DNA of 64,000 nt from Moniliella sp. 'wahieum' (Eukaryota): contig RSEE01000057.1 of the NCBI GenBank assembly GCA_003971905.1, positions 186,001-250,000 on the forward strand, written 5' to 3'. A program made the position numbers and the translations under genes. A model generated the notes under the pieces. It did no database searches. It saw nothing but the letters and a program-made list of their open reading frames with translations, and was not told where the DNA came from. This document shows, piece by piece, positions 5,020 through 59,807 of the stretch. Position 1 is the stretch's first letter; each line of letters starts with the position of its first letter.

Positions 5020-6732
5020 TCTTACTCTCAATGTTCTTATCCCGTTCCTGGTCATGTATGTCAATCTCTTTCTCAGTGACACGGAAATCCAAATCTAGGG
5101 CTGCTTACTGGTTGGGCCTGGCAAGGTCCATCGTTGCATGAGTCTCTGTGCGTCTGGGTATTGTGGAGTGGCGGATCTAGGCGTCCTGCGCCAGACGACA
5201 GAAAAGGAGGTGTGGACCTTCACGATTTGGAAGCCCCGGAGTTGCTTTTGCAAAAGACAACAACCAGGGGCCCTCCTCTGGCACCACATGGAGATGAGGC
5301 GATGAGGTCCAGATGTCCCTGAAGCGCCTGATGGGGGATAAGTACTGAGTATGAGATCGGGGGGAGGAGGCAGTGCGATGGACTAGACAGGAAAGACAAC
5401 CAGGTCCCAGGTACAGGAGCCCAGAAGCGAACATCTCAGATCTCATAGGCAAAGCCAATTCGCATTGTAGGCGCTTCCGGAAGAACGTGGCGAGCGTTCA
5501 ACATGTAACACCCCCTGTATTGGCCTTGTGTGCATGTGAGGGGGAGCAAGAAGCTTAAGGCCAGAAGCTTAAGCTAAACGCAAGAAGCTTGAGGACAAGG
5601 TATAGATCGAGACGCAGGAGGGGTTGCACATTGAATCAACGTTGAACCCGGTGACCAGCGATCCAGTGAGCGTACCCAGTACAGCGTTGGTGGTCAGGCG
5701 ATCATCGATCAGGCAGGCGGTCAGGCAGTCAGGTTGATCCACACTTCTGGCTGTAATAGCAGTGCTGATTCTGCCTGAACGGCAAGGAACGATCAAGTGG
5801 CGGTCCAACAATGTGGGCGACTGAATTTCCAGGGGGTATTGAAGGTTTTACGAACTTTATGTATGACGTGTACACCAGCCGACGTGGCGGATCGACGCGA
5901 GCGCGTGAGCAAAATAAACGAGGGTACCTTCTCCTATTAAGCAACTCGAGTACCTTGTGGCTGTAGTAACTAGTAACCAGTAAAGCTAGTAACGGCGGAT
6001 TTAACTCAAGTTTTTGGCCGCACAACATATGCACTGCGTTCGCCACGATGAGAGGGGGGGAATCGATCGAACCGCGAGGACAATATCATAGAGAAGCCTA
6101 ATTGCATACTGTGGCCATGTATAAGCGCATAAGCCCTATATCCACAGGCATGCCTGACAGGATTTAGGATGAGCTTGTAGAAGTAATGAACTTAATGAGC
6201 CTCCCAAGGCTGGCCTACTCACTCTGCCACGTTAAAAGCATAAACCACTGTCAAAAAAGTGGTCTCCTGCTTTGGCAGACGGAGGTCACCGGTCACATAT
6301 CTATCTGTCAATCTCATGCTGCGACTTCAACGTTCGACGAAGTCTCTTCTCTAGCCCAAATCTCCCAAAGCTACAGTCCACCCATCGGTTCATTGTTAAC
6401 AGAACCTAAATCTCATCGGTCGCATCGCTTACGAGAAGTTGAGCATACTCAGGACTCACTTAATACTCACTTAGTACTCACGAGGACGCATCGCCAAGCG
6501 AAGAAGTGATACTGGTAACAGGTGTAACAGGAACATCAGAGGCCAGCGCACAACACCTACCACATTTCCAGCCCTCCAGCCTTGCAGCTTTCCGGCTCTC
6601 CAGCTGAACACCCAAGTCGACTACGATGGGGCAAACATGAATAAATAAAGCAGGACGGGGACAACTAGACAGAAATGAGGAGTTGGGTACAGGAGGGTAT
6701 GACGTACGCTTTTGATTCGCACGTCGTGTGTA

Positions 6733-6830
6733 GGGGGAGAGAAGGGGAGGGGGGGGGGGGGGGAGAGGAAAAGAGAGAGACAAGGAAAAGTGGGGGGAAT
6801 GGGGGCGGGGAGGATGAAGGGGGGGAACTG
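6733..6830. repeat. Polypurine / G-tract low-complexity region (G-quadruplex-capable)
   Basis: Multiple G runs including one of more than 12 G; almost purine-only on the + strand; lies downstream of the cyclin gene. Confidence 0.55.
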
Positions 6831-7691
6831 TGGCGGGCACGCTCTCAAAACAAACAAAGAGAAACTGCAAATCACCGTGTCAAAAAAGGAAAGTAAAACG
6901 AAGGCCAAAACGGTGCCGCGCCGGTAAGCCGACAAGAGAAAAGACGAAAACGCGATTGTTCTGTGACAGTGGCAGGTAAAGAGCCCCAAAATGCGCTACC
7001 GATCCCGGATGATCGATGGCCCCTGGGTACGGGCGCCAGCCGGCCCATGAGAAAAAATAAAACTGGAGCTGGCGGGCCCAAACCCGAAGGAGGTTGGAGA
7101 AGAGGCTAGGGAAAGCGGTGGGAGGAGAGAGAGAGTACGTGGTAGGTGCCGAAACCTAGGCCAAATGGTTGGCCTGTGGATCAAAGGAAAGGGGCAAGGT
7201 CAACGGCAAAGGTGGAGGTGGGGGGGCTTTTCCACGGTGGTGGAACCAATGATAATCATGTTCCATCACGACCGACGAAGGGGTACGAATCAACCCACCT
7301 CCGCAATGGGAGGTGGAAGCGGACGAGGCACGGGATCGCCCTACGGGCATACCAAGTGAACCTGAAGAGGAATCGCCCGAACTTCGGCCGACAAAAGGGG
7401 GGGAAACGTGTTTTCGGAGGACAGTAGGTTGTCGGGCTGGGCAACACACGAGGCGAGGAGGGAGATGGCTCCAGGGGTGACTCCAGACGAGGCGCATGCA
7501 GTTGGACAAAGGGGTTGGATGCTGGTCCGGTCTGAGTCCAAGACATGGAAGGGAGGCGGTGGTGGTAGATTCTAGAGCGTTGATGATGGAGAAAGGTGGG
7601 TTCGCTAGTGAGTTGGCCAAGGTAGATTTAGCTCCCAAAGGTCGAAGGGGCGAAGAGTAAGAGCGGGTAGAACGGGTGGAGAAGGGCCAGG

Positions 7692-8651
7692 TCAGCTTAG
7701 TAGGCGACGGTTCGGGGATGAAGGTGGTGGGTCTGAGGCAGGAGCAAGGTGGGCCATAGGTGGGGGGGCAGCCGAACTAGGTGCGGCAGTGCGAGGAGGG
7801 ATGTAGAGTGCCTCATCAAGACACCCTCGTTCCAACAGATCGGCGAAACCGAGAAGCTGTTCCGCAAGGACGTTGACCCGGTGCCCGAGAAAGTAAACAG
7901 CTCCTGCTCCATAGTGTTGATGTCTTTTAAACTGAACAGGCCCTGCCCGACAATCGTCCAGGACTTGTTGGAGTATGTGTCGTCGCAAAGCGCCTTGCTC
8001 GAAAGCATCAAGGCGGAGATGAAGAGCCGGTGGCCGCTGGAGCCACGTGACGACGGAAAGCGTTGTTTAAGGCGCTTAAGGAGGTAGAGAGCTTGGTAAA
8101 CGACCAGGGTGGGCAGACGGGTACGATGCAACGCATATGCCACAAACTCCACCAACCGAGGTGTTTCGCCCGAAGGGTTCGTCCTCGATCGTGGACGGGA
8201 TGCCCCTTCTGGAGGGCTAACGAGGGGGGCAGGAGAAGAGGGCGGTGATGACCGCTTCACACAGCTCCGACAGGGCGCGGAAGCCATACAAGTTGCTCAA
8301 ATCCCGCCTGGAGGGTGTGAGCGTCATAGGGGGTTGGAGGGCAGGTGGTATACCCTCAGCGAGGTGAGGAGCCATCACCTGGATGGGCACCGCGCGCTCC
8401 TCGAAGTTGGCATCGACCTCCATCACGGCCTGAGACTGGCGCGACATAAACGGGGGCTGCAGGGCAGGTGGCACCTCAGCCCGGGTGGGGGCCGGCGGGC
8501 AAGGCACGGAGGCAAGACAGGATGCTGCGCGTGGCCTGAAGGCATCGGCAGGTAGAAAAACTGGGCCGGTGCCGTGTGCATAGGAATTGTCATGGTGATA
8601 ATCATGGACATGGGCATGGGCATGGGCGTGGGCGTGGGTGTGGGGGGACAT
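7692..8651 (-). CDS. Pho80/Pcl-family cyclin (cyclin N-terminal box) with His-Ala-rich N-terminus
   Basis: LVEFVAYALHRTRLP...ALYLLKRLK.RFP...GSSGHRLFISALMLSSKALCDDTYSNKSW...FSLKDINTMEQEL is a typical Pcl cyclin box. Likely ATG at 8651 (MSPHTHAHAHAH). Frameshifts near 8230 and 7890; 3' end uncertain. Confidence 0.8.
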
Positions 8652-8931
8652 AGTTGGCCGGGGTGAGGTCGGGATGATGGAGTTGGGGGTGGAGGGGGTG
8701 GAGGGGTGGGGTGTAAAGTGGCCAGAGAGCAGGCCCGAGTGGCACGGATGACCAGCGCAGTTAACGTTCAACAGGGGCTGGCAGTAGCAGGGAGCGTTGG
8801 CCCGCAGGGAAGGGAGTAGGGTCCGAGCAGTACTTGAGCTGGAACCGTTGGGCGCGGTGGCAGGCCAGTAACGCTCAGGCTGCGGCGAGCGGTGGGAGCA
8901 GGGAAAAGAAACGGAGCGGGGGGGGGGAGGA

Positions 8932-8975
8932 GGATGGTGATGGTGATGGTGATGGCGATGGCGATGGTGATGGTG
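8932..8975 (+). repeat. (GATGGY)n hexamer microsatellite upstream of the cyclin start
   Basis: gatggtgatggtgatggtgatggcgatggcgatggtgatggtga read directly. Confidence 0.8.
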
Positions 8976-9164
8976 AGAGGCTGGGGACGGACAGAAGGTT
9001 CAAGTGGGCGTGGATCGGTGCTGGCGGCCCAAGGCGGGGGGGGCAGAAGAAGAGCAGATGGAAGAAGACGGTGGCGGGGGGAAGCGACCGATATATGTTG
9101 AGTGCTGCGACTAGCCGCACTGCTTCGGTCTCCTGTCGTGCGGGCTGAGACAGAGCCCTGCGGC

Positions 9165-11175
9165 GGGCATCATGCATTGTGCATCACATGTCATGCATGT
9201 CATGCACCAGCACTAAGTCCTAAGACTGCGTCTGCAGTATGCAGCATCGATTATCTGCGCTACGTACTTTCCTTTGTCTCGAAGCTCGCAGCACCGCAGA
9301 GCGCTGCAGAGCACCGCGTGCACCGCCCGGCCCTGCTCTACGTGCCATTGCGAAATGGATACCGAGTGTACGGAATACTGACGTACTGACATGGATCGAA
9401 TTGATCCCATCCCCACATCAGTGGCGAACGGTGACCGGTGACCACAAGTTGTGACTGAATAGATTGGCTTTGGTGACCGGTGACCGGTGACCCGGTGGCT
9501 CGGTGATTCGGTGACGCCACGTGTGACACAGTGCGCTAACGCATGACGCGTGCGATTGCCCAGCTGGTTAATCCGCTTAGTTAAGCTATGTTACATGTTA
9601 AGCTTGAAGCCAGTTTGTTTCGTAGATGTACTTGGTTGTTGCCCGTTGTTGTTGGCTTAAGATTTACCAGCCAGAGCCCCAGTCTGAGGGTTGCTGGTTA
9701 CTAGTTACTAGTTACTGGTTACCGGTTATGCATTATGCATTATGAGGCCTGGACCTGATCGATGATCGATGACCACCCAATCGAGGCTCGATACTTTTTC
9801 CCAGCCGCCACCGTACCTGTGCGCTTTCCCTCTCAGATCTCAACACTCTCACAACTCTCCGAACTCGGCCACCATGCACATCATGGATGCCGTGCATCAT
9901 ATATCCGCCCCCCCTTCGTCGCCATCATGCATATCAATGCATCAACAATGAATATATTCAACGTTCAACGTTCAATGTTCGATCAACACGTCCAACACGT
10001 TCAACGTTCAACGTTCAACGCCACCGGAGTCGTGCAACTGGAATCGGCAACCATGCCACATGTAAAAAACTGGTGTAACATGTAACTGGCGTAACCGGCG
10101 TGTTAACCGCGTATAAAAAAAACGTCGACGTTTGAACGTTCAACGTTCAGTTCAACACCTTTAACAGCTTTACCACCTTCAACGTCAGCCGCGTCAACGC
10201 GTCTCAACCGCGCGCCAACCAACATCGGGCGGGTTGAACGTTAAACGTTAAACGTTAACACGTTTACATGTTACATGTTACACATGCATAAATCCCCAAA
10301 TCACACCTACAAAACGTCACAATCTCTCGGGTCTCGTACCTAAAAAAGCGCCTGCTATTCGCGTCCAGATCACATGTCACATGGATGCCATCATATGTCA
10401 CGCGCGTCACATGCATGTCACTTGCAATGCGCCCCGTTCTAGCAGCTCTCCAAGCTCCAAGCTCCCAGCTCCTGAAGAGGCGCTTGAAACGCCGTATGGA
10501 CGACATGCAGGCGGACCAAAGAATGATTACTGACGCGTGACGTCGGAGTACTGAGTACTACTGAGCGTATTTTATAAGTTCTGAGACGGCCTGATCGCTG
10601 TCCTGGCCAGACTCTTCTGCGGTACCGTCGATCACCCAGGTTTATCAATGATTGATCCAAAATTTGTGGAGGCGCTCGGTTTTTAGCGGGTACCATCTTC
10701 AAGCTTCAGTATAGCTACAGCACGGCTTCAACTTCAGTTTATTCAAGCTTCAGTACCTTCAGTACTCAGTTGAGTACTTACTACTTATTGGCACTCTCGT
10801 GTGCGCACCGCATGTCATAGATTGCCACATCGATTGCATGTTGGGTGGTGGCGAGCAACAGCGCGGTGGCCTGTGCCATCACATGCATCACACACGTGAC
10901 GTGCTTGTCCTGCGATCAGTGTGTCTGGTCAGTGATACCTGTAATCGATAATCCCGCCGGCGATGTGACGCGTATCCTGCAATGAGTAATGGTCGATGAT
11001 CGATCGATGATCTATGGTGCCTAGTGCCTGGGCAGGATGCATGGCCGAGGGGTCGATCGGAAACGCGTACGTCATAAGTGCCATGCATGATCTTTCGGCC
11101 TTAGGAGCTTTAGGCACGCTGCCCAGAATATTAAGTGCGACACACGAAAAGAAAGCGCTAATAAGCGCTACGCGC
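9165..11175. repeat. Cluster of 7-bp periodic TNA + 4-bp-palindrome repeats (cluster A)
   Basis: Successive blocks of TGACCGG, TTACTAG, TTATGCA, TGATCGA, TCAACGT, TAAACGT, TTACATG, TGAGTAC and TCAAGCT units. Confidence 0.85.
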
Positions 11176-13132
11176 CAAGTGCTAATGCCAGTAGCACCAA
11201 GTTGTGGGAGAAAGTGGGGGGATGCAGTCAGGGAAGGCAGCCGGGAGAACAGAGGCGGAACAGATGGCTAGCATTAGGTTAGGACCCCAGTGGTCGAGCA
11301 GATCTCGAGTCCGGCATTATGCATTAGCGCTGGAACATCATGTAAACGCTTCTACTGACTTCGAAGTAGCCAGTGACTGTAGTGACTACCAACTTGCGAT
11401 CCAGGCAGTGACGTACAGTGAGCGATCATTGCCCGGCAGAACTGGCATATATACTGTGCATACCCGCATGTTTGCGCACGAGTACTGAATAGGAGGCCTG
11501 GGGGAGCTGAAGCTTGGAAGGTGTGGATCTCTTCAGGGCGGTTGTGATGTGGTCAGTGTGGCAGCCCTCAGGTACCCAGGTACCTCTTCTGTGGAGCAGA
11601 ACTTAGTACTTACCCCCACACACAAAGCCCTGCCAAGCCCTTGAGAGTGGAACTGCAGGGCCTATTCGGCTTATTGAGTTGTTTATCGAATGTACAATTG
11701 CCAATCTCGGCCGGCAGATGGTTGGGGGAGAGACATTTCGGAGGGAAGAAGATACTATAGCATCAAGTCCAAGGGGATGTATATTATTGTGCTTGTCCCA
11801 ACGTCTTTACAGTGCATTCATTATCATTGTTGACGTTGTGTGGAGAGAGCACGTGTGTGTACTAACAGCCTAACGAAGGAGGAGATACGTGAATTCTAAA
11901 CCGGTAGCCCCAATCGTCTTCAGTCCTTGACCAGTGACTACTACTTGGTGGGTGGTTAGTGACTATATTAGTCACTACTAATCACAATGTACATAATTAT
12001 ATCGTTGTGGGGGCTTCGCCCCAACTCAGATTCGAGATGGGATATATGGCAAAGCAGTTGGTTACTTGGAAGTCTTCAGCAAAACCGATTATAATCCACC
12101 GTACTGGGTAGACCACCGCATTGGGGGCAACGCCGGTTGGTCAAAAATCGTGTATTACAGAGACCTATTAAGACGTTTTGTGAACAAATGATTTTTTGCC
12201 TGCGATAAAACCGAGCGATCCACCCCGTGAGACGATGTTTGGGATTTATAAGGAGCCGGCAGCCGGTGGACTTCAAGCTACAAAACAGTGGCCCTCAGCC
12301 TGAGCCTCAGGCTGAGGCCTCAGCCTCACCAGTTGATGGGCCGGTGGGAGATGCGATGGTCATACCCTCACATACACACACCCCTTCAAAACGCCGCCAC
12401 CAATGTTCAACATAGCATGCGGCTCAACGCTAGTCCCTGCATGACGTTGAAGCGCACGCAGCTCGACCCACATTCTAAAGCGTTCTTCAATGGGGACCCT
12501 GACCACGAGAAGAGATTTGCCTCTGCGGGGAGAGAGCCATGGACATGTATCATGCATTTCACACACCACGGTGGGGAGCGAGTCTCTGGGGTTGCCGTAG
12601 CACCGTATTTTCATCAATGATTAATGAGCGCTGAGCAGGCAATGCATGCCCTGTAATTGGGTCTATACATTCTGTGGCGACTTGTCACATGAATGTTACA
12701 CAGTATACGTCTCTAAGTTGTCTTAGGCGGACATATGAGATGAAGACCCCATTACTTTATGAGTCGGAGTCCGAGCAAGTAAAGCGGGGGTGGTAAGATA
12801 ATATCCGTCAGCTTCCCATCGATCACATACCAATGGCAACCAATAAAGCCACCAAGAGCCACCAATAGAGCAAAACCAATGGACATGGTAGAAGACCTAT
12901 TCTTTTGAATGCGGGTAAGTATATATGAGGAAAAAAGTGTATATAGTCATCAGGGCGAAGGAATCCGAGAATATATAGAGATAGAGGGATTTTTGTGTGG
13001 GATCCATTCTTCGGCGCACATTACCCACTTCCAGTGCCCGCCAGCGCTGCCAAGGGCTATTACATGGTCGATAAATCAGGACGGTGTGGAACGGGGGCGA
13101 GGGGGGAACAGTGGAAGGAGGAACGGTGTGGC

Positions 13133-14122
13133 CTAGAACATGCCGGGCCGTAGCCCCGGTGATCCTCTAGTAAAATCCATAAACCCATACCCGGATGCAT
13201 TTTGTCCATCCTCCCACGGATTACTATAGGTTGAACTTTGAGCGTCGACTCTTCTTCTACACTTTCCAGTCCTACTATAATGAGTGTTCAGTGTAAAGGT
13301 CGGGCGATGCTGTGAAATCAAGTACCGAGGGAAGCAAGCAAAAAAAATGCACTGGTAGGAAGGGAGAAACAGATCGGTGAAGAGCATTGAGATGGTATAC
13401 CTCATCATCTAAGAGGCCCTGAAGACACTCAGCCTGTTGCATTAGCATTTGCAGAGGAACTTGAACAAGGACCAAGAAACGTTGCGCCTATTATATATCT
13501 GCTTCTTATCCTCGGGTATACTAACTGCAGTTGTTCGTGCCAACCCAATTAAGACGATACCATTAAATGGAGTGGCCAGAGAAAAGGTCAGGCCCCCTGG
13601 CTCAGCGGCCATTCGCTTGTAAGCAGATATGGATAGCACGTGGATATACGAATGATTAATGAGCGTTGTATACGTGTTTGTTGAAAAGTGAACCATCTGC
13701 GATGATACAGCTCAGTAACCCTTTTCCAGTGTGGTCAAACTACTTCTTGTTGGCCGTTTTGGTGATATACAAGGATCCTTGCCTTGTCATAACCACCGCA
13801 AGAGGCAGAATGACCCTTAAGTGCGTTACTGGTACTTGGCGTTCTTGTAGCATTCCCTTTGCTCCAACCGTCGTATCAGCTCTTTCTCCTTCTGTTCCGC
13901 AGAAGCGTTGCAGTTTCCTTACTATTAACCTTTTGGGACGAACCAAGGTATGGACTCCCTGGTGTACCCGAACCTGATCAACCAGATATGCTCCTTTGAG
14001 TCCTATCATTCCTAGTCCATCCACCTCACCTTCCTTTGATGACGGATGGAGAAAGAGCTTGAGGGCCACTTCGTGGGTCCATCGCCCTCCACAGCCGATG
14101 CTCTTGCTTCCGTGTGCTCATT
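13133..14122 (-). CDS. Candidate orphan multi-exon gene, no recognisable domain
   Basis: A 91-nt pyrimidine-rich segment 13310-13400 (GTATAC...TTCACAG) joins ...LQGLLDDE in frame to HRPTFTLNTHYSRTG...PGMF*. Further acceptor CTGAG...CGCAG at ~13697-13716 and ORF 13740..14069 lie upstream. Exon structure and start not resolved. Confidence 0.3.
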
Positions 14123-15374
14123 GTGGCAACCTAATTGGGGCCTCCAGATCGTGAACAAGCGACACCAGCCTACCGAACATACGTAGTTCACTCAACCGTG
14201 TCGGAAGCCTCCAAATCTACCTGCAAAGCAGGGTCAGTCTGCAGGAATTGGCCTCCAACTGTTCGAACCCATGTATGGGCAGTGTTCCCTCTCATACTCT
14301 TTTGTGTGAGCGGGATGGGGGCGCGGCAGGCATCCCCGCAGTTTCCAGCGCTGCAAGAACAACGGACAGAGACAACGCTGAAGCCCACGGTTGGGGGTTC
14401 CGGTTGAGCATATGCAAAACACATGCACGCGGGCGGGTAGCGACAGCACAAGCCGCAGAATTGCCACGGCGCCCACCGGATCGAAAGATTCCCCGCATTA
14501 GTGACCTCCGATGACACCTTCCGTGCCCAGTTTCGTCTTCAACCCCCAGTGATGCTACGCCCAACGTGCGCGGTCCATCTCGTCGGCCCACCACACCAGC
14601 CACCACCGACTTACTTCGTCTCACCACATAAATTTTTCACGAAACACAGTGGACCATATGGGCCGGGGAACCATCGCCGGCTATTACCCAAGAGAGACCC
14701 AAGCCGTGACGTATGAGAACGTAAATCAGCGGAGGCTGGCACAGTTATATCATAGGCTCCGCACGCGATGAAACGGAAAGGTTGAGGCTTTACATGTTAC
14801 ACTTTACGCGTTCAGGGAGCCATACACGTCATTCGTTCACAACCATCGCTCAGGGTGAGCACGATGATCGTGTGAGTGTGTGACTATGACAATAAGAAAT
14901 GGGATATGACATAGTAGGACATATGACTGTGTATAAGTTGTAAAAGGATCACACATCTAACGATGGGAAACTCAGTACTTATTGATCTACACCAGCATCA
15001 CCTTCTAGAATACGTGACTCGTCTATAGACCACCGGAAGGTCACGAGTCATAAAGATATAGGTGGAGAATCTCTGGGGAGAAGAAATAATATGACAATGC
15101 ATTGACGAATATGGTGGGGGTCCTTGAGGCTTGAGCCCCATCGCGGCGGCCTCATCCTCATCAACCTCATCATGCATCAGCGCCAAGCACATCCTCTGAT
15201 ACAATGAATGTAGGTCCCGAGAAAATGTGTGTGATCTCCATTAAGATCCTTCCTCTCCCTCCATCGAAGATCTCATTTGTCGGAAGATATACGTCTGTTA
15301 GTGTATTCACCCTGAGGAAAAGGATTTAGATCTTTAGATGAGATCAGAAGAAGTCTCACCGGCATACATCTGCA

Positions 15375-17060
15375 CTCAGGGCCTCAGGGCCTGACATGTG
15401 ACATGTGACACCTGACAGGTGTATATGAGACTGAGATCCCTGAGATCTGCTACTATGCAGGTGAAAGGGCGTCCATCTCACAGTACACGTCAATGATCAA
15501 GCTTCAAGCTTCAAGCTTCAAGCTTCAAGGCCCAACTTAATATGTGGCCTGTTCGTCCATTCTATCTCACGGCATCACCTCAAGTTAGCAGTCTGGGAAA
15601 CGTCTCGAGTCTCGCGACCCCACAACAATATGATGTGAATAAATTGCTCCCGACGGAACAAAACCACCCCAAATGTACAGCCAGGAATATAGCGGTTCCT
15701 CCCCTTATTTTGGCGCGGCCCAAAAACAGTAGACCCCTTGCATAACGTTGCGGCTATCGTTGCCGGCTATACTACAACAGGTGTGAGGTCATTGTCAGAG
15801 ACTTCCAGATTGCGAGCAGCTGTGACATGTGACATATGACATGTGACTAGCGACTTTTCGTAGTTACAGCACACAGCTACTATACAGGTTCGGTATATTA
15901 ATAGAACGTACACACATCATGCATCATTATGTACATGTCGCGGAACAAAATGTCATATGTCGTCACATGCATCACGCCCGATTTTTGTTTTGTGCATTAT
16001 GTGACTGTATATCCCTGGGCCTTAGGATAAGTACTGTGTGCACATGTCACTGTCACATGTCACCCTCTTAAATCGAGAAGGAGAATGCTTTGGAGGTGCG
16101 CTTCAATCCACCATCCGGTTACGTCACGCACCATGGCCCCCACATTGTGCGTAGAGTCTCGATGTCATCTCCCGTTGGTTTATAGTAGCCTTCAGCTTGA
16201 GTATTGTAGCTCCTACGCATTAGAGGTGTACCATGTACACCGCCACATCATACCACACCTCACATGTATCCTACTCCCTCTATACGGGCTGTAGGAATAG
16301 ATCTCTCTTCTCATCAGGAGCCTTTTCAAGCTTTATACGGTTCTCGAATGAAGCTTAAGCTGAGAAGAGATAACCACTTTCACATAATGACCTCTCGATG
16401 GTGAGTTCAATCTCCGCTCCCGGCCGGTCGTCTCCCCTTTCTCGTTATCGCAACTCATCCTCTGATCCACAATATGATTCACGCCACTTGCTGCAAGGAG
16501 GATGCGATACAGAAGTATTGCGGAGCCATGGAACGGCAAAAAAGGACAACCAATGTCCTATTCCCTCACCTATTTCGCTCTCTCTCTTCTCTTCTTTCCT
16601 TCGCTGTCAGACAGTACAACATGCCAAATTTAAGCTTCAAGCTTGAGGTCAAGCCTCAGGGCCTCAGGCCTCAAGCTTCAAGCCTCAAGCCTCAAGCCTC
16701 AAGCTCAAGCCTTAAGTACGTCATGCCATATAGCCGCCACACCTTTCCTACTGTTATCGATTTTGTACTGCTGCCACCCACACAGCGATCACGATGATCT
16801 GTTACACGTCACATGTCATGGCGTTTCAGATCTCCACATTCGACAGCAAAATTGCTACTATCCTAGTCACTAATCACTATAATCACTACTCACTATGCAG
16901 AGCCGCTAGTCACCTAGTCGCCAAGAGTCCTGAGCCTCAGGCTCAGGCCTCACATGCACATGTCACGCATGACATGTGACATCTACCTCGCACCTGTCTG
17001 GGTTGCCATATATATGGCACCAAATCATGATCTGCGCAAATGTCACATGTCACCATGTCA
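15375..17060. repeat. Cluster of 7-bp periodic TNA + 4-bp-palindrome repeats (cluster B)
   Basis: (TCAAGCT)4 at 15497-15524; TGACATG TGACATA TGACATG TGACTAG at 15823-15850; TCAAGCT/TCAAGCC/TCAGGCC chain at 16630-16715; many TCACATG/TGACATG units. Confidence 0.85.
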
Positions 17061-18171
17061 CCTGCCATATTATACGACTCTCAGTCTATGTGGATTTACT
17101 AAGGATATTCACCTGGAAGGGTGTGCTACATACCTTCCATTCCCATCAAGTTTTACATGCAGCGTTATACGCATTACGCCTTACGCGTTACATGACGACA
17201 GACCGAACGCGTTTCACATCCAAAACCCAAGGAACACTGGCGTGCAATGCCGGGTGATGGTCTTCGTCGTCACCAGATGTCGATGAGGGAGCCTTGCTGA
17301 TGATGGTCATGTGGGGCAGAGCCTGACACAGCGGCCGAAATAGAGGTGGAATGTTAAGGGGAGGCAATAACGCCTGGATCATTGCGATGAGCAGAGGGGG
17401 TGTAGAAGATCAGAGAGCAAGCAGTTGATGGTCCGTATTGCATTGCACATGAGCAACAGAAAAATAAGGCTATAGAGGGAATATTCCTGCTTTCTGGCAG
17501 GGAAGGAATATTGGAAGGAATGACCCGTAAGGACCCGGGCTTGTTGGGCTACCGGCACCACTAACCAGTGTGGCACACAGAGGGCGAAGCGAGAGCTGGT
17601 CGAAGGCAATTCTTATGTCGAGAGTACCGAAAATGAAGGGAAGAAGGAAAGGGAAAAAGGAAAAGGAAAAGGAGGAGAAAGAATCCTCTCTCAGCGTGGT
17701 TTTTGGTTGACAAAGCGTTCCCAATAGATATATATACTCTCCCTCTCTGGTCTTCGATGGGCTGGCATGCTTGTGGCCTTTTACCGTGAATGAGGTGGGC
17801 CCCGGTGGGTGCGGCATCTCTTCCCCCGCGTTTGCTCCCAAGGGATCAATGCATCTTCTGTATAAAGGAATCGAGAGACCAACGATCGCTGTCGCTGTTG
17901 AACCAACTATTACAAAGAAAAAAAATGTAATGGGTCAAACCAAATTAGGGGGACGACGAGGTCATAAGGCAAACCAATAAGTGACACCAGGCAGGTACAA
18001 CCTGTTTCGCCAATCAAGTCCAAGTCCAAGAGCAAAGAGCAAAGAGCGAAGAGCAAAGAGCAAATGAAGCGAATGCCATGGGTGCACGATTCACGTGATC
18101 GTACGGAAGAGAAAGGGTACAGAGACAGAGCAAGGTAGGAGGAGGTACCTAGAATGCACCCCGCGAGGGGT

Positions 18172-21156: not shown

Positions 21157-21521
21157 GGCGGGGGGGGGGGGGAGACGGGGGTGGAGGTGGTGGTGGTGGG
21201 CGGCAGCTGTGGGCAAAAGTGGGCCGGGGGGGCGGGCGAAGCGGCGGGCGGCACTGGTGCTGTGCGGGCGCGGCGGCTGTGGGCTGCTCAGCTGAGGGCA
21301 GCGTATCAGTGCGCCCAGTGGGCACCACGACGCACTCACACAGCGAGCACCTCGTTTGGGCTTCAGGCCAGGCCGCACTAGTCACTCGCAGCTGTCGTTT
21401 CAACCTTTCAGCCGGCAGCCACCGCCCTATTCAAGTTTCAGCCAGCGCACGTGACCGCATGACCCCCCCTTGCCTTCTTCCCTCCTGCCCCCTCTTCGTC
21501 CCAGCTTCGCCCAGCCACCAC

Positions 21522-38628: not shown

Positions 38629-38696
38629 GCCGGGGACAGCTGGAGTGGCAATGGCCGGGGATAGCTGGAGTGACAATGGCCGGGGACAGCTGGAGT
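38629..38696 (+). repeat. 25-bp tandem minisatellite, about 2.7 copies
   Basis: GCCGGGGAYAGCTGGAGTGRCAATG units start at 38629, 38654 and 38679. Confidence 0.85.
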
Positions 38697-39987
38697 TGTT
38701 GGAACCACCTTGCCTGTTGCATTCCTCCCGAACCATGGCTGTGCAGATGGGATTGGGATTGAGACTGAGTACTGAATACTGAATAGTCAGTGCGTGACCT
38801 GGCTGTAGCGGGTACCTGGAGACCTTGAGGGGGAGTGATACATGATGCATGATGAGCTCTTTCTTTGTTCGTTCTATCCCGCTTGTCCATGAGAGAGCTA
38901 CTCGCCAATTTCCCCCCCATTCCGCCTCGTGTCCACCTGGTACGCAGGCTTGGAGAAGGTGGACAAGCTTGGTGCCTACCAACATAGTGTAGCCCCCCGC
39001 GAAGTAAACCCGGACCCTCGTCTTGTTGTCTGTCCTCCTTCAAGGAAAGAAGATGCCAACAGCGGCAAAATATTCCTGATCCCCATATTCTCCAGATCGG
39101 CCGTTCCAGTAGTAGCAATGACGCAGATCATGCATGTGACATGTGATGATCTAGCAGTGTCACATTATGTCACGGCCATGTATATAGAAACGACACCAAC
39201 AAAAAGATACGCCGATGAGAGGCTCTGTCGCAATGTCCAGCTTGCTGATGTTCCCAATCACATAATCACCCACAGAATATGCACCCACCAACCAACATCG
39301 AACCGCCACCACGGTGGCCAGCGCCAGCGTTTCGACAGCCAACTACACCCAAACCGCCGGAGTGTTTGATTGGTACTGGGCAGGGGGTGGTGTGGGGCAG
39401 ATGAAGGAGGGGACCGGGTGACCGTTGTTGATCTTCGACTTGACCAACATCTACGATGAACTATGTCAGACTCACGTCGTGCTAGGGGGCCCTTGGCCCA
39501 CTAGGCCCGCATGGGCACTATGGCGTGATTCTTATCAGTTGGGAGATCCTGTGTCCACCTCTCGACTGTGCCCCCTTCCTGAGGAGGTACATATACCTCC
39601 TGTGCGTCCATAGATGTATGCAATCCATCTGCACCCTTTCCCCCATCTCCGTCTCCTGACAGGTTATGAGCCCAATGTGCTTCATGCATCCTGTCTTGCA
39701 TCTCACCGTGGAGATCTGCCGCCTTCTAGAGTGCTGTGCCGGTGCGCAGCGCGCATGTGCCATGCATCCATTGGTAGTGCATCATACTATCACGCATCAG
39801 TACATGAGCATTGCCTTGCTAGCTACTAGGTACCCGGCATCTGCTGTGCCCCCCACCCCCACCGGCCCCGGCGGCTACGCTGCCGTCGCCTGATCTCAGG
39901 CCTCAACCTGAGGCCAGCGTCTGCCGGGCGGCCGACGCGGCGGGCCATGCACAAGGCGAGGCGAGCAAAGCAAAGCCATCAGTAATT

Positions 39988-40392
39988 TATCAGTACTGAG
40001 ACTCAGTACTGCAGTACTCAAGCTGCCAAATAAAATCCAGCCGAGATCGCCGCCGCCACAGCAGATCACGGGGTGGCGCACACCCGCACCAAGCCAGTGT
40101 CGGCGCCTGTTTCGCTCGCCAGCACGCCCACCCAGCACGCCGACAGTGTTTGGGGCACTGGCGCCGGGCAGGGGAATGATCGATGATTGATGATCGATCT
40201 GATCGAGGAGCCGGCGAGGGAAGCGACATGGAGCTCTTCAAGACGACGCAAAGCCCCCCCACCCAAGTAAGAAGAGCGAAGCTGAGCGCGGTGCGCAGCA
40301 GCCTGCCGTGTGCTTGCAGCTACACGGCAGGCGGCATCCTTGGCGGGCGCGGTGACTGGCGGTGACTAGTGACTAGTGACTAGTGACTAGTG
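39988..40392. repeat. Small TNA + palindrome heptamer cluster upstream of the aspartic protease
   Basis: TCAGTACTGA/TCAGTACT at ~39990-40020; TGATCGA units 40177-40206; perfect (TGACTAG)4 at 40363-40390. Confidence 0.85.
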
Positions 40393-42959: not shown

Positions 42960-44068
42960 GCTCTACCCCTGACCAAGGCGCAACGCTGACTCCTATGCCC
43001 ACCTCGCATCTCGTTCTGCTCTCCTATCTGCTCTCGGCCATCTTCTCTCCAAGTCTCCAAACGCTGGAAACGACACTGGACATTTTTTTGCTGCTATCCA
43101 TTTATCCATTATCCACCCCCATCACCCCTCTGTATCCACCCAAAGCCTACACCAGGAGTCGCCATTCGCTTCTCCGCCTTTTTGCCCGCTTGCTGATGCG
43201 GTGTTGCACAGGGGCGCGTGCACTGCATCTTTCTCGTTCATTCGTTTCCTCCCTTGTCGCCTCTGCTGGCTAACATGTAGCCAGCACCAGAGGCGGACCA
43301 GCATGCAATCCATCCACATACCTTGGCATTCCGTCTGGTCATCTGCAGAGTGCACTTAGGCTGGAGCAGGGCAGAGCCAGGGCCGTATTGCGTTTCCTGA
43401 AAGAGCAAGAACATTCGCTAGCCTTCGTAGCTCAGGGATAGTGATGGTTTGTATAAAGTCCTCCACAGGCAGAGTACTATAACGATGATGCAGATGATGG
43501 ATGCGTCTTCGTCTTGCCCTATCTGTCGAAGATGCGATCCCACATCCCACATCTCACATCTCACATGGCACGTCAGAGAGGGGCCGTGAACACTGGCGAT
43601 GAGACGGGACGCTGGTGCTCGGGAGACAGCGTGCCTGCCTCGGGAGAGTCCGTCTGGGTTGGGGCAGCAAGTGCGGCGTGGTGAGGGTGGTGAGGCGGCC
43701 ATTGAATGCTCGCTGGCCGATGGGTAGCGGAGCGCTGGTGGGGCGGATGTGACGCATGTGACGTCGATCGAGTCATGCAGCTGCATTCAGGGACTAGGGA
43801 GTGACTCGACCACGTCGCTGCGTTTTGAAATGTTCTGCGCAAGAAAGCCATGCGATGAGGCGGCGCTGGCTGGGAACCGGCCGCCAGTAGCTAGCAACTA
43901 GCAGGACGGGCCACCGCTGCCAAGGCCAGGCTGTACGCTGCAAGCTGCAAGCGGGACCGTACAGACGCAGCCACAGGTGCGTCCGTGGGCGCACCACTAC
44001 TTATGCCGCCCTCCTCCGCCCTGCTGCGCCCGCCATCGTCCGCGCGCTTCCTGGCCGTGTGAGCTGCG

Positions 44069-47243: not shown

Positions 47244-48696
47244 CGCGGCTGGGGAGGAAGCGGTCTCCCGCCGAGCCGAGGGGAATGGTCTGTGTGTTCA
47301 GTAGTGGGCTATTGAATCTCCAATTCATCCTCTTTTCCTGATCATAAACATGGGTTTCGCATCCCCCAGAGCAGCCCCATCTGCGTGCAAGGCAGCTTGG
47401 GGCTTGGGAGCGGCAGCCAGCATAGGCGCAACAGCACATGACGGAAGCACACCGGCACCTTGTACGTTCTCTCCCTCCGCTGCCTAGCTGAGCAGTGCGG
47501 CCACTGGAACCTCAGCCAGCCATGGTGCAAGGACTCTGAGTTAAGTTGTAGAGGAACAAGCGTTTGGTTTCGACCGATCTCCCTTTTGCTATGGAACCCT
47601 GACAACTCTAATATGGGGGACGAGGAGGACCACCGGGCCTACGGCCCGGTCGGCTGGGGCTTCGCCCCAGCTTGGTGCTGCGTCGCCACCTTAGCCACCG
47701 TTCCCCCGGGCCACCATTCCACGCTGGAACCCTTCCATGCTGGAAAGACGGAATAATATCACCGATGCTTGCTGGCAGTGGGTGGCTGGGAACGTGGCAC
47801 GGGGCAGGCTGATGTAAAAGTGCACGGTGGATCAATTTTGCGTATGTACCAGGGACGCACTCAAGAACCGTTTTTCCCCCTGGTTTTGACGACGCGAGGA
47901 TACTACGGCACCAAGACGGCGGGCAAGTTGTTTGCGCATTGGAAGGAGTTGGCTACTAAGTCTCAGTTGAAATGGTTCCTCGCTCGTATGTCAACCACGT
48001 TCCCTCCGTGTCCACACGCGCTTCCTAGGGTACGGGACCGGATGGCGAGAGCCGGAGGGTCCTGATATCCTGGCAATCCCCCTGGTTCCTTGACCTAGTT
48101 AGTGGCGCTTCCAACAACCCCCGCAAGATGAACGGTTCGGTTTAGACTAGCGTGCCCCTGTCCCGCCTTAAGCTCTGTCAATGGAATGCACACAACATAG
48201 AGATCTGTGGAAGTATGCAGTAAACGCGTGACATTCACAGTTACGGTTTACCAGAATGGTATTCGAGGCGAAGCTCACTCCTGCCCCCTCCCACAGCCCC
48301 CATCTACTCATGGCAGCGCTGCATCAACAATGGAAGAGTACAGACCCCCCAAGCTCGTAGGGGCGACCGAGACGAACGCCAATGCGCATGGGGAAAGAAA
48401 AACATGTGGGGGTATCGGCCCACAGGAAGCGAGGACAGAATGGGACAGAATGGAAGGTGTGTGCGAGTGCGAGAATCACGAGGCCCAATCAAGGCTAGGC
48501 TGGGCATGCAGAGAGGCGTCGATCAAAAAAGGACAACCAAGAGAACAGTCCAAAACAAAAGGGAGAAACAAGTGTATGTACGTGGAAGGGAACCCCGTAT
48601 TCAAGGAAACAGAGGGGAGGGGGGGGGGGCGCATTTGATCAACCTAATGCGAAGGTGCGGCCTGATTGCGCTAGTGCCCGTTTATCCGCAATGGTT

Positions 48697-51039: not shown

Positions 51040-53007
51040 GGCGGAGAATGCGCCACAGCCGGCGCGGCAAGGAGACCGATAGGCGCGCAGCGCACACCCA
51101 CAGAGAGCAGAGCGATACGCGATGCGCGCGGAGGTCGACTTGGTGCGGGCTAAGCCTCTGCGCTGCGACAGGGATGAGGCAAGAAAAGCAAAGGCAGCAA
51201 TGCCGATGGCGGAGGTGGTGGAGGGCAAGATGCGAGCATGTCGTGGAATTGAAAGCTGTCAGCCTGTCATGGCAGTCAGCCGGCCAGTACTAGTCAGTGA
51301 CTCCTATTAAAAAAGCGGCGCAGCCGCAGCGTACGTTTTGTTTATAGTCACACTCCTATGTAGTCACGCTAGTCACGGGGCCTCCGCACTTTGGTTCGCA
51401 AGTTCCTTTGGGCAGCACCACCACGCGCCCATGAATAGTGACTCCTCTGAGAGAGTATTGGGGACAGCGAACACACGCAACCACCCAATCAAACCTCCTA
51501 TTCTTTCCGATGAAAGGGTGTGCGTCCATCATTAATCAGAAGCTGTCCTCTCTATGGTGTGTGATGTGCACGTCACGTGTGTGGGGCCCCGCACCAAGTT
51601 TGGATCGAGACAACAATCGTCGATAATCGATAACCCGCGATTGCGGAAGCTCGGGATTTCTTCTCTCTCGACTTCGCACTCGGCACCCCCTCAACCACGG
51701 AAGCGACAGAACAAAAGCGCATCCTTTGTCCATCATCTATGCGTGTAGACTGCGGTCCTCTCCGGCTCCCAGGCGGTAGACCAGGTTCACCTCGGTTCCA
51801 TCGGCTTCCACGCTGCGGGTATCGCGCCAGCGTGAGACACTGCCCCTGTTCCCTCCGTGGCATGATCTCTCCTGTGTGCCTCACCACTGGCCCTGTGTCT
51901 AGGCCGGCCTCCTATATAGATACCTCTGCAAATCCCTCACCTTCTCATCTTTCTGTCCAACAGGCACCCTGGGTCCATTAAAACAATGCGGTCCCCGCGG
52001 TACTAAAAGGCATCTAGAAGTTACGCGGCAGAGCCACATAGCATACTGTTGATTCCAAAAACCCTGATGAGATCGAGAAGCACATTTTTATTGCCAAGTA
52101 TCTATTCGAGAGGGAAATCACTTTGACATGCTCATGAGCTTACCCCCTTCGAATGGGAGGATACGCGGCTGTCCACTCGCACGTTTAATGCATGTCCATG
52201 AGCCAAAAAATGCTTCAAAGGGGAATCGAACCCCTGTCATATCGACGCAACACTTCGTGATGGCAACGATATAGTATACCACTAACCCATTGAAGCTTAT
52301 ATAAACGGTGACACTACAGTTTTTCACCACTAATGTGCGCATCGTCTTTCCTTCCTCTTTTCCTCCTGCACCATGGGAGAGCATGGCGATTGAAGACGCC
52401 AGTCCAGTGAGAGGAAAGCCAAGTCCAGCTGACCTGGCAGCCCATCTCTCTCGTACAGACCTTAAAGTAACGGTCAACGCCTCAGCGTTGATTTCGCCCA
52501 TACCCGTTGCCCTGCGATTATACCGCAGTTATCGGGTAACCCAACTGCACCATTGTTCTCTTCGTTCTTCCAGCTGTCCCATACTATCATTTTAGAGAGT
52601 CTTCCGCCCAACAGACAACCCTTCCCTGTGAGGTCATGATGCACAGCCGGTGATGGACGTGCATGCCCATATTTGAATGCCCTAATAGCACCACGGTCAG
52701 TTTTCCTCTACAGCTTCTGAAAAGGTGAGAACTAAGCTGCTGTTTGCTGTGGGCCGTTTTAACAAGCGAGACCAGGCAATGTGCGGTATGGATGAGATGG
52801 TATCGGAACAAAACGGGCAAGTGGCACGGGGGTAGGAGGGGGAGGTGCCAAGGTTACTGAAAAGGGACACGGAATAGGCAGTGAGAATCAGCCCAATGAG
52901 AGAAACACGCCCGAGAGTGGGCTAGATTGGTCAGGCAAGCATGCCAGCGCAGCAGCAGGAAGGAAGCTGGCTTAGGCGCTTAGGATGCAGAGTGCAGGGC
53001 TCAGGGC

Positions 53008-55853: not shown

Positions 55854-55887
<34 letters not shown>

Positions 55888-55905: not shown

Positions 55906-56589
55906 GGAGGGCCGGCGGAAACGGAAAGAAGAGTGATGGCTAGGTGACCGAGAAGAAAGACCCTGGAAGGAGCCAGTCTGTCCCTGGCCAGCCCAGCGCG
56001 TGCGCTGCTCGCCGCGGGCGGAGCAGGGGGGCAGTCGCAGGCGCTGCGGCCAGGGTGTTGTACACTGGGTGAGACGCATGTGCAAGAGAGCTGCTCGCTG
56101 CTGGGAAGCCGGCGGGCACTGTGGCGCGTTCATGTACAACAACGCCATCCTCCTCTGCGCACCGTCACCGGTCAGATCCCACACCGTCCAGATCTCAGAC
56201 CAGTCAGACCCACGGGCGGCAGGCACGGCGCCAGTGCCGCGGGCCAGCACGCACCCACCGACTCCCACCAGGGCGCACCCGAACGCTGCCCCCATGCCGG
56301 GGACCATGGGTGTATCCACCTGGGTCGGGGGCAGCCGCAGCACAGCGCAGGTGCCGCCTGTCCAGACGCTGCGCACAGTGCTGCTCCGTCGCCGGGCAAA
56401 GCCGAAGCCATATCACGTGACCTATCACCACGCATCGTAGGTATTGCACGCTGCGCTGCCTTGCACCCTGTTACACCCCATCTGCTCGGCGCGCGCAGGC
56501 TGTCCAGGCTGCTCTGGCACACTGGTCTCCTTATTTCCTGAAAAGCTCAGATGGCGCTTCCCTTTCCAGGCCCAGGCCCGAGGGCGATT

Positions 56590-58295
56590 GGGCTTGAAGA
56601 GCTTGAAGCTTGAAGCTTGAGGGATGCTGCCATCGAGCCATCCCGTGCCATGTGACATCATATGTGATAGGTCTCTGCATCACCAGCCCCTCACCCCTCT
56701 TACCCACCCAGACACTCCCCCTCCACGGATGCACGCGCTACGGGCCACGTAACGCGTAAGGCCATACTGGTTTATAACACTGCAACAATACCAAGGTCTG
56801 AAGATTACTCTCGCCCTTGTAGGGCGTCAGCGCATCAGCCTGCCAACAGCATCTAATTTTTGTCCCTCTGTCTTATACGTGTGTTTTGCCATGAATGATA
56901 TGAATGCAAAACAGAGCTCTATTACGCGTTACGCTCAAAAAGGGCTCAGGCGCTCCTACTGAGCTGTCAAAGCCTGGTCGACTGGAAGCGTGAGCGCTTG
57001 GGCATCAATTATCGATCATCGATCAAGCCCAGATCTCCCGCTTCAAGATGAAGCGCTTGGCGTCTCTAAGAATACTCCGTTACTAGGGGACGTTGAGCAC
57101 TGAGTACGTGTTGAGTTGACTGAGTCTCAGTACTGGGGGGGTGTTGAATATACTGAGTACTATGAGTACTGTGAGTACTGAGTATTGAGTTTGAGTACTT
57201 TGAGTAATTTGAGTACTGATGCACGATGCACTGATGTGTTGTACTGAAGTACTGATGAGTAACTGAGTCAGTACTGAGTCTCAGTACTCATCGACATCGA
57301 TCATCAACTGTATGCATCAACACAGTGCCATCAGTACATCAGTATACTTAAAAGTACGTAAGTGTGCTTCAGCCTTCCTTCAGCCGCTGAAGGCTGGCTA
57401 AAGGCTTGTACGGACGGGCACGGGCTCCCGGGCGATTCCGCCCGGGTTCCGTTTCCCGTCCGGCAGGTTCCGCTCTTCCTTCTCTTCATCCATCTGTCTA
57501 CACCTCTGTCTGTCTGTCTGCGCTGCACCCGCACAAGGCTCAGCCTGAGTGCTTCAAGCTTCAATGATCGGCCATTGATTGCATTATGGCCACAAACAAA
57601 CGTTGAGATATGTTCAACGTTGAAGCTTGAAGCTTGAAGCTTGAAGTTGTTCAACGTTCAACCTGGGAACTGGTAACTAGTAACTGGCAAGCTCATATGC
57701 AACGTTCTCAGCGTTTACAATGGCATGCTTCCCTGCTCTCGCTTCTCAACTCTCAACTCTCAACTCTCAACACTCTCAACCACATGCTCCGCATCACATG
57801 TCACATGTATCACAGTTCACACGTCCCATGTCACGGCGTCACTAGGTCACATTGGGCGGTCTCCGATCTCACATGTCACACAGGAAAGTAGAACCCCTCC
57901 ATGCATGACATTTGTGACATGCATGTGACATGTGACGACAAAAAGGGGTGATGGTGAGAGCCAGTGACTAGTGAGACCTGAGATTCTGAGAACACGCCCG
58001 AATGGAGATAGGCGAACCATCGACCATCAAGCTTCAGATGAAGTCTCAGATCGTCAGAGACTCTCTCCCATCATTAATCATTGACATTCGTTGTTCTCTG
58101 GACACAGGGAAAGAGCAGAGATCTCGCAGGTGCGTCCCTGTAACACTTGTGCGGCGTTTCATGTCATCTCACCCTGCCACGGGGCGGGTCCAGCCCGTAA
58201 CACTCTCGGTCTACTTATCGAAATCATCGGACAACCGCCGTGCAGTTCCGTCACGCGTCACGGCTTCACTGATATATGATGAGATCTGAGACTTG
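56590..58295. repeat. Cluster of 7-bp periodic TNA + 4-bp-palindrome repeats (cluster C)
   Basis: TGAAGCT units at 56600-56620; dense TGAGTAC block 57095-57290; TCAACGT(TGAAGCT)3 at 57614-57641; (TCAACTC)n at 57746-57780; TCACATG/TGACATG at 57790-57935. Confidence 0.85.
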
Positions 58296-59283
58296 GAGCT
58301 TTTGGAGTCCAGTGTCCAGTATTGTGGTCGTCGAGATGGGGATGCAGTTGCACTATAGTGATGGCGGTGGTAGTCTAAGCCAACCAACAACACCTAACAA
58401 ATAAACACCACAAGCAGCCAATATCAACAGTCGCCACCATAGGGGCTATATCTAAGTGTAGGCTGCGGAACAGGGAAAAGGAAGCTAGAAAACAACGGAA
58501 CTCCTAGGCCTTACGGGCCGGAGGAGAGCTTCAAGGGGTCTTGGTCAAACACTCGAGCCACCCGGTGGCTCAACATTCACCGATCACCACAGGCTTACAG
58601 AGGCCTATATACATGTCTTTTTATGCACTACCTAATAAGACTCGAATCTTTATGTACAAAACCTCCTGAGTGGGCCGTCGCAAAAGGCTCTTTTTCTATC
58701 CTCATTCCCTGTTGGGAGATCTCATCCCTGCAACCCAAAACAAAGTTTAGGTCATTATACGTAGTTGCGGGTCCGGACACAATAGAGGCGATGTCCGCGT
58801 ATGGGAGCGCGGTACAGGTCAGAGAACCACAGAATTGCCTTTTTGGAATGCCGGAAGAAGGAGCTGCTTCGACTATTGGGACAAGAAGCAGAATGCGACA
58901 AGAACTCCCAAGTGCCACGGACGCACCCAAGAACCCTTCTTTCTCTGAGGACACTATGCTACCAAGGCGATGAAGGAGATGGCTGGGCACTTGTGAGAAT
59001 TAACCGATCGAGATGAGTCTGTCACATTGTGGAGATGGTTCATCGCTCAGATGTCTGCTACGCTCATTCGTACCCACGTGCGCTACATCCGGTTTGGATG
59101 GGGGAGGGCGCCACAGAGGTTCCTGGCCTGCTCGTGACTCACTTTTTGGCGTCAGCAAGCGGTACACGCTGGATGAGCAAAGGTCGGTTTGGACGCAGCG
59201 TTTCTTTGTCCCAACCTTATTATATTTTGTGATAGATATCAGGAACATGATTGGATTCCATGCAAACAACTGAAAAATAACAA

Positions 59284-59355
59284 GCCTCTTTGGCTCAGTG
59301 GTAAAGCATCTCACTAGTAATGAGAAGATCGGTCGTTCGATTCGGCCAAGAGGCA
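59284..59355 (+). tRNA. tRNA-Thr(AGT): tRNA-Thr (anticodon AGT), intronless
   Basis: Acceptor stem GCCTCTT/AAGAGGC, D arm GCTCAGTGGTAAAGC, anticodon arm TCTCA-CTAGTAA-TGAGA (AGT at 59316-59318), T loop GTTCGATTC, 72 nt. Confidence 0.95.
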
Positions 59356-59357
59356 AA

Positions 59358-59363
59358 TTTTTT
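59358..59363 (+). terminator. RNA polymerase III oligo-T terminator
   Basis: T6 run beginning 3 nt after the tRNA discriminator base. Confidence 0.75.
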
Positions 59364-59807
59364 GTAGTTACTCCGCGGCCTTCTTTTACTCCATCGCTTG
59401 TGCTTGAAGCTTGGTCTTGACTTGATCGATCGATCCGTCACTCAGTTTTCCGAGGCCGATATAAAAGACCCACTGCACTTGTACAGGGCGACAAGGAAGC
59501 GAGCGCTTGAAGCTGGAAGGAGGATGCTGGAAGTGTGAAGACCCTAGTAGCACGGAGGACAGTGTGTGGGGCCCCAGACGCAACAGGGGCGGCTGGCACG
59601 TGCACCCTCTTCCGAATAGCTGTGCCAATCGAGAAACGCAGACGCAGCCCGAGACACGAAAGAAAAAACAAAAAACAAAACAAAACAAAATGCAAAATGC
59701 AAATCCGAGGGCTGGACCCGGTCACGTGTGCCATCGCTCGTCTGCCACACCACTACCACCCTTGGGCGCCCCCCGTCCCGCCCAGACCCATCCCATCGCA
59801 TCTCCCC

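Follow-up and report, generated by a model that had tools for sequence, protein, structure and literature searches.

Palindromic TNA heptamers in a basidiomycete contig as probable excision scars of a cut-and-paste DNA transposon

We analyzed a stretch of 64,000 nucleotides from Moniliella sp. 'wahieum' (contig RSEE01000057.1, positions 186,001 to 250,000; hereafter the window), in which many short heptamer repeats are built of a TNA trinucleotide followed by a 4-bp palindrome. We propose, with a probability of about 0.7, that this heptamer grammar consists of the footprints accumulated at donor sites as a cut-and-paste DNA transposon, itself absent from the window, was repeatedly excised. Each unit is a stereotyped insertion of 7 nt, not a selected motif, and the palindrome arises as a consequence of that event. 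Staggered target duplications and P-nucleotides (inverted copies of flank ends), when found together, mark sites at which an element has inserted and was later excised via hairpins on the flanking DNA; therefore, we read the grammar as a collection of excision scars with a 7-bp, TNA-centred target.

Heptamer repeats of this kind had been pointed out between 9165 and 11175 by the initial annotation, and they are present in the sequence there, apart from a block at 11153-11170 listed as a GCGC unit, which is made of two AGCGCT hexamers with no TNA link. Across the whole window we found 102 links of the form TNA-palindrome-TNA, with a 4-bp core and the same N on both sides, against 1.8 expected from 50 shuffles that approximately keep dinucleotide content, while same-N links with non-palindromic cores were 59 against 34.6, so that the comparison of core types proposed with the annotation came out clearly in favor of palindromes. 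Palindromic cores in other frames (ANT, CNG, GNC and six more) showed no enrichment over shuffles, and the same was true of palindromic cores at lags 5, 9 and 11. These structures, their frequencies and their specificity for TNA are direct observations.

We also looked at the spacing of TNA trinucleotides in non-coding DNA, taken approximately as the gaps between open reading frames (ORFs) of at least 200 aa and Pfam-supported genes, which amount to 33,242 bases or ~52% of the window. Same-N TNA pairs peaked at lag 7 (156 vs 26 +/- 5), as the autocorrelation suggested earlier had anticipated, with harmonics at lag 14 (76) and lag 21 (45). A second, smaller peak stood at lag 9 (60 vs 24), and lags 3, 5, 6, 10 and 11 were flat. 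All links except one (101/102) fall in this approximate non-coding DNA, in agreement with the remark that the arrays avoid coding DNA, and perfect links cover 954 of its bases (~3%).

The arrays themselves obey a narrow rule. Among the 53 exact period-7 arrays of the window (at least 2 copies), 35 have a unit composed of TNA plus a 4-bp palindrome, a rule that fits no more than 64 of the 2340 primitive 7-mer necklaces that can exist; the initial argument that a shared period, a shared flank and a palindromic core are not to be expected of microsatellites with independent origins is correct. Moreover, all 35 quasi-palindromic array units are of the A....T type, though 244 quasi-palindromic necklaces exist. 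With a stricter threshold, exact tandem arrays of period 6 (23) were as many as those of period 7 (22), and the period-6 units were not palindromic. As an outside control we used 121 metagenome loci (425 kb) chosen for carrying a TGACATG array, where the grammar occurs at 0.14/kb compared with 1.4/kb in the window; loci bearing the same array are thus poor in the grammar, which is therefore not a general property of such microsatellites. Ordinary heptanucleotide microsatellites do resemble the scars in forming short period-7 arrays, and slippage may change the unit number of existing arrays, but in the scars the unit rule is tied to the flank and single events are in the majority. We therefore rejected a slippage origin, considering that 35/53 arrays follow the 64/2340 rule and that 69/83 loci are single mirrored events.

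Palindromic tetramers were used broadly as cores, 15 of the 16 being present and AATT absent, and cores made only of A and T were rare, as noticed before (6 of 83 loci vs 15.1 expected). Window-wide, 6-bp palindromes of the ANNNNT type numbered 355 against 172 expected, with CNNNNG, GNNNNC and TNNNNA at expectation. Of the excess ANNNNT palindromes, about 80 are not part of a perfect link and probably represent decayed remnants of scars.

We next looked at the unit event. Single links make up 69 of the 83 loci, and at 54 of the single-link loci the core is a mirror image of the two bases immediately outside a TNA, on one side (48) or on both (6), the remaining 15 showing it on neither. The description of the grammar as TNA plus any palindrome was thus right as to the pattern and wrong as to the core, which is set by the neighbouring bases. 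When direct repeats of length k with mirrored spacers of length p were counted in an unbiased scan, strong enrichment appeared solely at k+p=7, with (k,p) counts of 74 vs 4.7 for (4,3), 80 vs 4.1 for (5,2) and 68 vs 4.1 for (6,1). The event can be written, with primes for complements, as abTNAcd becoming abTNA·b'a'·abTNAcd, a gain of 7 nt (M1). It was counted 112 times on both strands, a count in which perfectly palindromic arrays enter twice, against 0.27 in shuffled sequence, while each of the other 15 central frames gave 1-5 events of the M1 type. The T is kept in both copies in 124/143 cases and the A in 114/143, therefore the ancestral site already carried TNA. When M1 is viewed as a 5-bp duplication with two inverted bases it is asymmetric: 112 cases draw their mirrored bases from the non-TNA end and 5 from the TNA end.

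A series of further products accompanies M1. Intact TNA-centred 7-nt repeats are separated by P-like spacers of 1 nt (5/5), 2 nt (10/14) or 4 nt (4/8), with at most 0.15 expected per class, compared with 9/42, 7/98 and 2/20 in the other 15 central frames (18/160 together), and the P-nucleotides originate from either the left or the right flank. The +9 product, in which intact 7-nt copies hold 2 P-nucleotides, explains the lag-9 peak of TNA pairs. Plain 7-bp duplications centred on TNA were 33, arrays included. A product corresponding to hairpin offsets (h) of 4 or 5, which carries the complementary base in place of the first N, was seen 5 times vs 0.27, and the product specific to h=1 once vs 0.3. 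Concerning base composition, the middle N is S in 69% of events, close to the 70% of background non-coding TNA sites, and position b favors G on the side whose P-nucleotides are retained. Copies one substitution away from the perfect 12-mer amounted to 131 vs 9.8 expected, a count to which array edges contribute, next to the 112 perfect ones. This near equality of degenerate and perfect copies fits continuing production with neutral decay, and not a single burst or strong conservation.

From these products we infer a transposon, flank hairpins and an order of events as follows. The element would insert at nnTNAnn and duplicate 7 bp (abTNAcd). Upon excision, the transposase would leave covalently closed hairpins on both flanks, exactly at the boundary between element and flank, and host enzymes would nick each hairpin 2 (or 3) nt off its tip, giving the self-complementary 3' overhangs cd·d'c' and b'a'·ab. 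Offsets of h=2 and h=3 would both yield M1, because T and A are complementary. End joining would mostly trim one overhang to duplex and keep the other, producing abTNA·b'a'ab·TNAcd or its mirror image, always with a gain of 7 nt, and the product would read as TNA, a 4-bp palindrome and TNA, the palindrome being P-nucleotides plus the adjoining bases of the flank. More rarely, both 7-bp copies would survive with 0, 1, 2 or 4 P-nucleotides between them (+7, +8, +9 and +11). As the duplicated site would be a new target, repeated insertion and excision, presumably with some slippage, could build arrays, and an event on the opposite side would change the core and retain the TNA, leaving runs of differing palindromes on one TNA. 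Finally, an insertion of 7 nt shifts the reading frame, which would restrict the survival of scars to non-coding DNA.

Several variants of this scheme were tried and rejected. The product of offset hairpins, abTNA d'c' abTNAcd, was found 2 times vs 0.33; a 5-bp target-site duplication (TSD) with P-nucleotides from the TNA end 5 times vs 0.23; and reading the +9 scars as an 8-bp TSD plus 1 nt failed in 2 of 4 cases checked by hand. As a separate observation on one-sided scars (for example at 43748, 51362 and 56593), the duplicated 7-mer is bordered by the complement of its own first base (z=a') more frequently than expected by chance: 16 of the 33 M1 scars show it and so do, by eye, 5 of 7 +9 scars.

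A number of results weigh against excision of a transposon. The direction of change, a gain of 7 nt, is inferred and not observed. Pfam scans of 48 of the 58 ORFs of at least 200 aa in the window returned neither a transposase domain nor a hAT dimerisation or BED domain. Segments of the window bounded by TNA-centred 3-bp or 7-bp repeats included none with real terminal inverted repeats (TIRs), the sole matches in this search for a resident element being lattice units or chance 8-of-10 matches without extension, and none of the long inverted repeats in the window bounds an element. The search for a matching element or transposase covered 64 kb, therefore its negative outcome is weak. Moreover, the product spectrum is far more stereotyped than that of experimental Ac/Ds footprints, and the junction base changed to its complement, which is the signature of Ac and Hermes and centres the palindrome on the base next to the element, accounts for 4 cases compared with 18 other substitutions, so that odd-centred junctions of this type are not enriched. 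Neither the z=a' excess in 16/33 scars nor the depletion of AT-only cores is explained by the model. In addition, five short intergenic spacers hold 0 scars vs ~8 expected, which is likewise unexplained, and the inferred rate is high, as perfect scars occupy ~5% of non-coding TNA sites.

Part of this evidence would also suit a host nuclease, for instance a domesticated transposase, that makes cuts staggered by 7 nt at nnTNAnn where intergenic chromatin is open, with no mobile element involved; fill-in and turn-around synthesis, or hairpin processing, would then write the +7, +8 and +9 products. The lack of an element in the window, the very stereotyped product spectrum and the clustering of scars within long intergenic regions speak for such an enzyme. 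We nonetheless consider it unlikely, since P-nucleotides with duplicated staggered targets are the signature of insertion and hairpin excision, since the mirrored bases would need an extra step, and since a low-copy cut-and-paste element is expected to be absent from most 64-kb windows.

Less probable still is a template switch during replication or repair at TNA that needs no site-specific enzyme, comparable to polymerase-theta-like templated insertion or quasi-palindrome template switching, in which a 3' end finishing in abTNA would snap back, copy b'a' and resume. In its favor, neighbouring bases do recur inverted within the scars, and the sequence abTNAb'a' makes a small hairpin. However, ANT, CNG and GNC should serve equally well, and each gave 1-5 events compared with 112 for TNA; the re-copying of abTNA and the intact 7-nt repeats with P-nucleotides from either side are left unexplained; and a double snap-back product is absent (2 vs 0.47), which rejects that model. 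Among the three possibilities raised by the initial annotation, a lineage-specific repair process that writes the repeats came closest, to which we add the stereotyped 7-nt insertion event, reading the process as repair after transposon excision.

The other two possibilities of the annotation are not needed. Selected arrays of binding sites for a dimeric regulator reading TNA half-sites 7 bp apart, possibly of a bZIP-like TGAC/TTAC type, would account for the intergenic and clustered location and for the G favored 5' of TNA, which gives GTNAC-like sites. We judge them very unlikely, considering that the core is set by the pre-existing flank with 15 different cores and no common motif, that most loci are single scars of 12-14 nt with two TNAs only, and that degenerate copies roughly equal perfect ones in number. 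In addition, there are scars downstream of a kinase gene (5436-6295), which shows that they are not confined to promoters. Some scars may have been secondarily co-opted as regulatory sites. Selection for hairpin or cruciform extrusion appears highly improbable: single-stranded, the longest arrays fold better than shuffles (z -2.1 to -4.6), but the energies of the five longest are small (-6.7 to -13.1 kcal/mol), single links prevail at 69/83 loci and self-complementarity follows automatically from P-nucleotides. An assembly or sequencing artefact, which would have to respect coding boundaries (101/102 links non-coding) and to imitate a series of mutational decay, has a negligible chance.

We then compared the scars with known systems. 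PIF/Harbinger elements target TWA and Tc4/Tc5 elements target TNA, both with a 3-bp duplication, and they resemble the scars in having a T-N-A-centred target; Transib/RAG-like elements make a 5-bp TSD, and RAG/Transib coding-end palindromes are even-centred. Plain +3 and +5 duplications are not enriched in the window (TNATNA 90 vs 74.7; 5-bp 7 vs 5.4). The PIF/Harbinger or Tc4/Tc5 type was rejected on the 3-bp count and on lag 3 (25 vs 28.6), and the Transib/RAG-like type on the 5-bp count, on the rarity of P-nucleotides from the TNA end (5, compared with 112 at the opposite end) and on intact repeats of 7 nt. That hAT, Transib, MULE and RAG systems form hairpins on the flanks and leave footprints is well established (PMC5499845), and P-nucleotide footprints were obtained in a fungus for Ac/Ds, with 28 types among 128 events at one site (PMC5873905). 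Hairpin-type footprints (hAT, including Ac/Ds, Tam3 and Hermes; Transib/RAG; MULEs) share with the scars a duplicated target around the joint, inverted copies of flank ends, a product series of 0-4 P-nucleotides with small losses, and host hairpin opening followed by end joining (PMC5499845, PMC5873905). In the window we likewise found a direct repeat of fixed length (7 nt, with spacers of 0, 1, 2 or 4) and inverted flank copies from either flank. The scars differ from such footprints in the 7-bp TNA-centred duplication, the dominance of one product, the even-centred palindromes and the chaining into tandem arrays.

Basidiomycete elements with 7-bp TSDs were described in 2025, namely hAT7 in rusts (Pucciniales) and Kyakuja in Laccaria bicolor, in a source that also gives 3 bp as the duplication of Harbinger (PMC12730594). 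There, hAT7 groups with Ac and Tam3, and it resembles the scars in its basidiomycete host, its 7-bp TSD, where hAT elements otherwise make one of 8 bp, and its grouping with users of flank hairpins; it differs in being described in rusts and not in the smut lineage (PMC12730594), and the odd-centred footprint of the Ac type is not what the scars display. The likeness to hAT7 is one of TSD length and grouping; the published supplement gives hAT7 consensus sequences and no TSD sequences (PMC12730594). Kyakuja (KDZ) also combines a basidiomycete host with a 7-bp TSD, has CA..TG termini and no TIRs, and is similar to the scars in TSD length and host (PMC12730594). The scars are not filed under any one superfamily. 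The literature found contained no account of such a scar density, of chaining into tandem arrays or of a TNA-centred 7-bp target. The annotation's view that this is not a described element is thus half right: density, regularity and target had no match in the literature found, whereas excision scars with P-nucleotides are a textbook class, and it is their density and regularity that are unusual here. What the present analysis adds is the symmetric 7-bp model, together with confirmation of the +8, +9 and +11 products.

Were the excision reading true, this genome would preserve the outcomes of hundreds to thousands of donor-site repairs, a natural archive from which one could read how a basidiomycete opens hairpins and joins ends in vivo: nicks would fall 2-3 nt from the tip, one overhang would be retained while its partner is lost, and overhangs of A and T only would be disfavored. 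It would also reveal what an element as yet unseen in the lineage targets (nnTNAnn) and how it acts (7-bp stagger, boundary-exact hairpins), and excision scars alone could generate microsatellite-like arrays and many 6-bp palindromes, a point that bears on the way in which compact, transposon-poor fungal genomes gain new promoter sequence. We also entertain a rather unlikely further possibility, either a transposase-derived nuclease retained by the host and breaking nnTNAnn in open promoter chromatin, or a so far undescribed superfamily with a 7-bp TNA target and boundary-exact hairpins; in either case the arrays would feed promoter evolution, and short palindromic cis-elements would be written naturally across the whole genome. 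As a caution for annotation, such arrays should not be taken for regulatory motifs or satellites.

The positions of the main scar loci and of two tRNA genes are collected below.

Table 1. Scar loci, scar-rich intervals and tRNA genes of the window.
Feature	Position	Strand	Detail or basis
Block of the initial annotation	9165..11175		29 of the 102 TNA-palindrome-TNA links; cores CATG, CCGG, CTAG, TGCA, TCGA, ACGT, CGCG, AGCT, GTAC
Compound array	9698..9772		TTACTAG x2, TTACTGG, TTACCGG, TTATGCA x2, then TGATCGA x2
TCAACGT, TAAACGT and TTACATG arrays with single scars	9958..10282		sequence
TGACATG x2.7 and TCAAGCT x4.7, longest perfect array of the window	15392..15529		sequence
TCAAGCC/TCAGGCC array	16649..16716		plain 7-bp duplication of CCTCAAG; unit non-palindromic, still TNA-centred
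+8 scar TGTCACC A TGTCACC	17048..17062		intact 7-nt copies, 1 P-nucleotide
+9 scar TGTGACG CA TGTGACG	43748..43763		intact 7-nt copies, 2 P-nucleotides
+9 scar AGTCACG CT AGTCACG	51362..51377		sequence
+9 scar CTTGAAG AG CTTGAAG, continuing into a TGAAGCT array	56593..56620		sequence
+11 scar TGTGACA TGCA TGTGACA	57913..57930		2 P-nucleotides from each flank
Densest interval	56413..59464		19 merged loci in 3.05 kb, 6.2/kb; between protein kinase gene (-) and tRNA-Thr + FCP1-like phosphatase gene (+)
Gene desert	9000..17909		8.9 kb, 36/77 merged loci, 4.0/kb; locus counts
Scars and TGACTAG x4.4 array	38766..40392		between ERO1 (-) and aspartyl protease gene (+)
Four scars	5436..6295		downstream of kinase gene ending near 5098
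tRNA-Trp(CCA)	52211-52296	-	86 nt, probably intron-containing; within scar-bearing intergenic region
tRNA-Thr(AGT)	59284-59355	+	within scar-bearing intergenic region

The TTA part of the compound array (9698-9744) can be reduced by hand to a putative ancestral ggTTAtg through six mirrored +7 events on alternating sides and one point change, which would imply that one TNA can carry successive different palindromes. Two separate compound arrays, at 5964-5983 and 9691-9710, have a common 20-nt string in opposite orientation (95% complementary), either because a segment was copied or because the arrays converged from ggTTAc targets that were alike. Scars cluster beyond what TNA availability predicts, with a variance/mean of 2.33 vs 1.17 expected (99.9th percentile 2.02), and local hopping or the targeting of open chromatin would produce such clustering.

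The window is eukaryotic, and its ORFs contain domains of ERO1, protein kinase, FCP1-like phosphatase, ABC-F, malic enzyme, phospholipase D, DEAD helicase and aspartyl protease. The closest named relatives of the ERO1 ORF are in Ustilaginomycotina, with only 49-54% identity, which points to a poorly sampled basidiomycete lineage, and three further relatives reach 68-76%. Rfam and tRNA scans identified the two tRNA genes of the window and gave no match at the heptamer arrays. The gene desert has a longest ORF of at most 154 aa and a GC content of 0.50 compared with ~0.58 elsewhere in the window, and its length stands out in a fungal genome that is compact. On both strands, long ORFs that belong to no Pfam family occupy 17910-22348, 48224-51293 and 7156-8999. 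Other repeats are unrelated to the scars, namely a 25-bp tandem repeat x2.7 (38629-38696), a GCT/GTT codon-like repeat (50796-50938), an AGGAGC repeat within the kinase ORF (55809-55903) and a run of 20 G (6744-6763).

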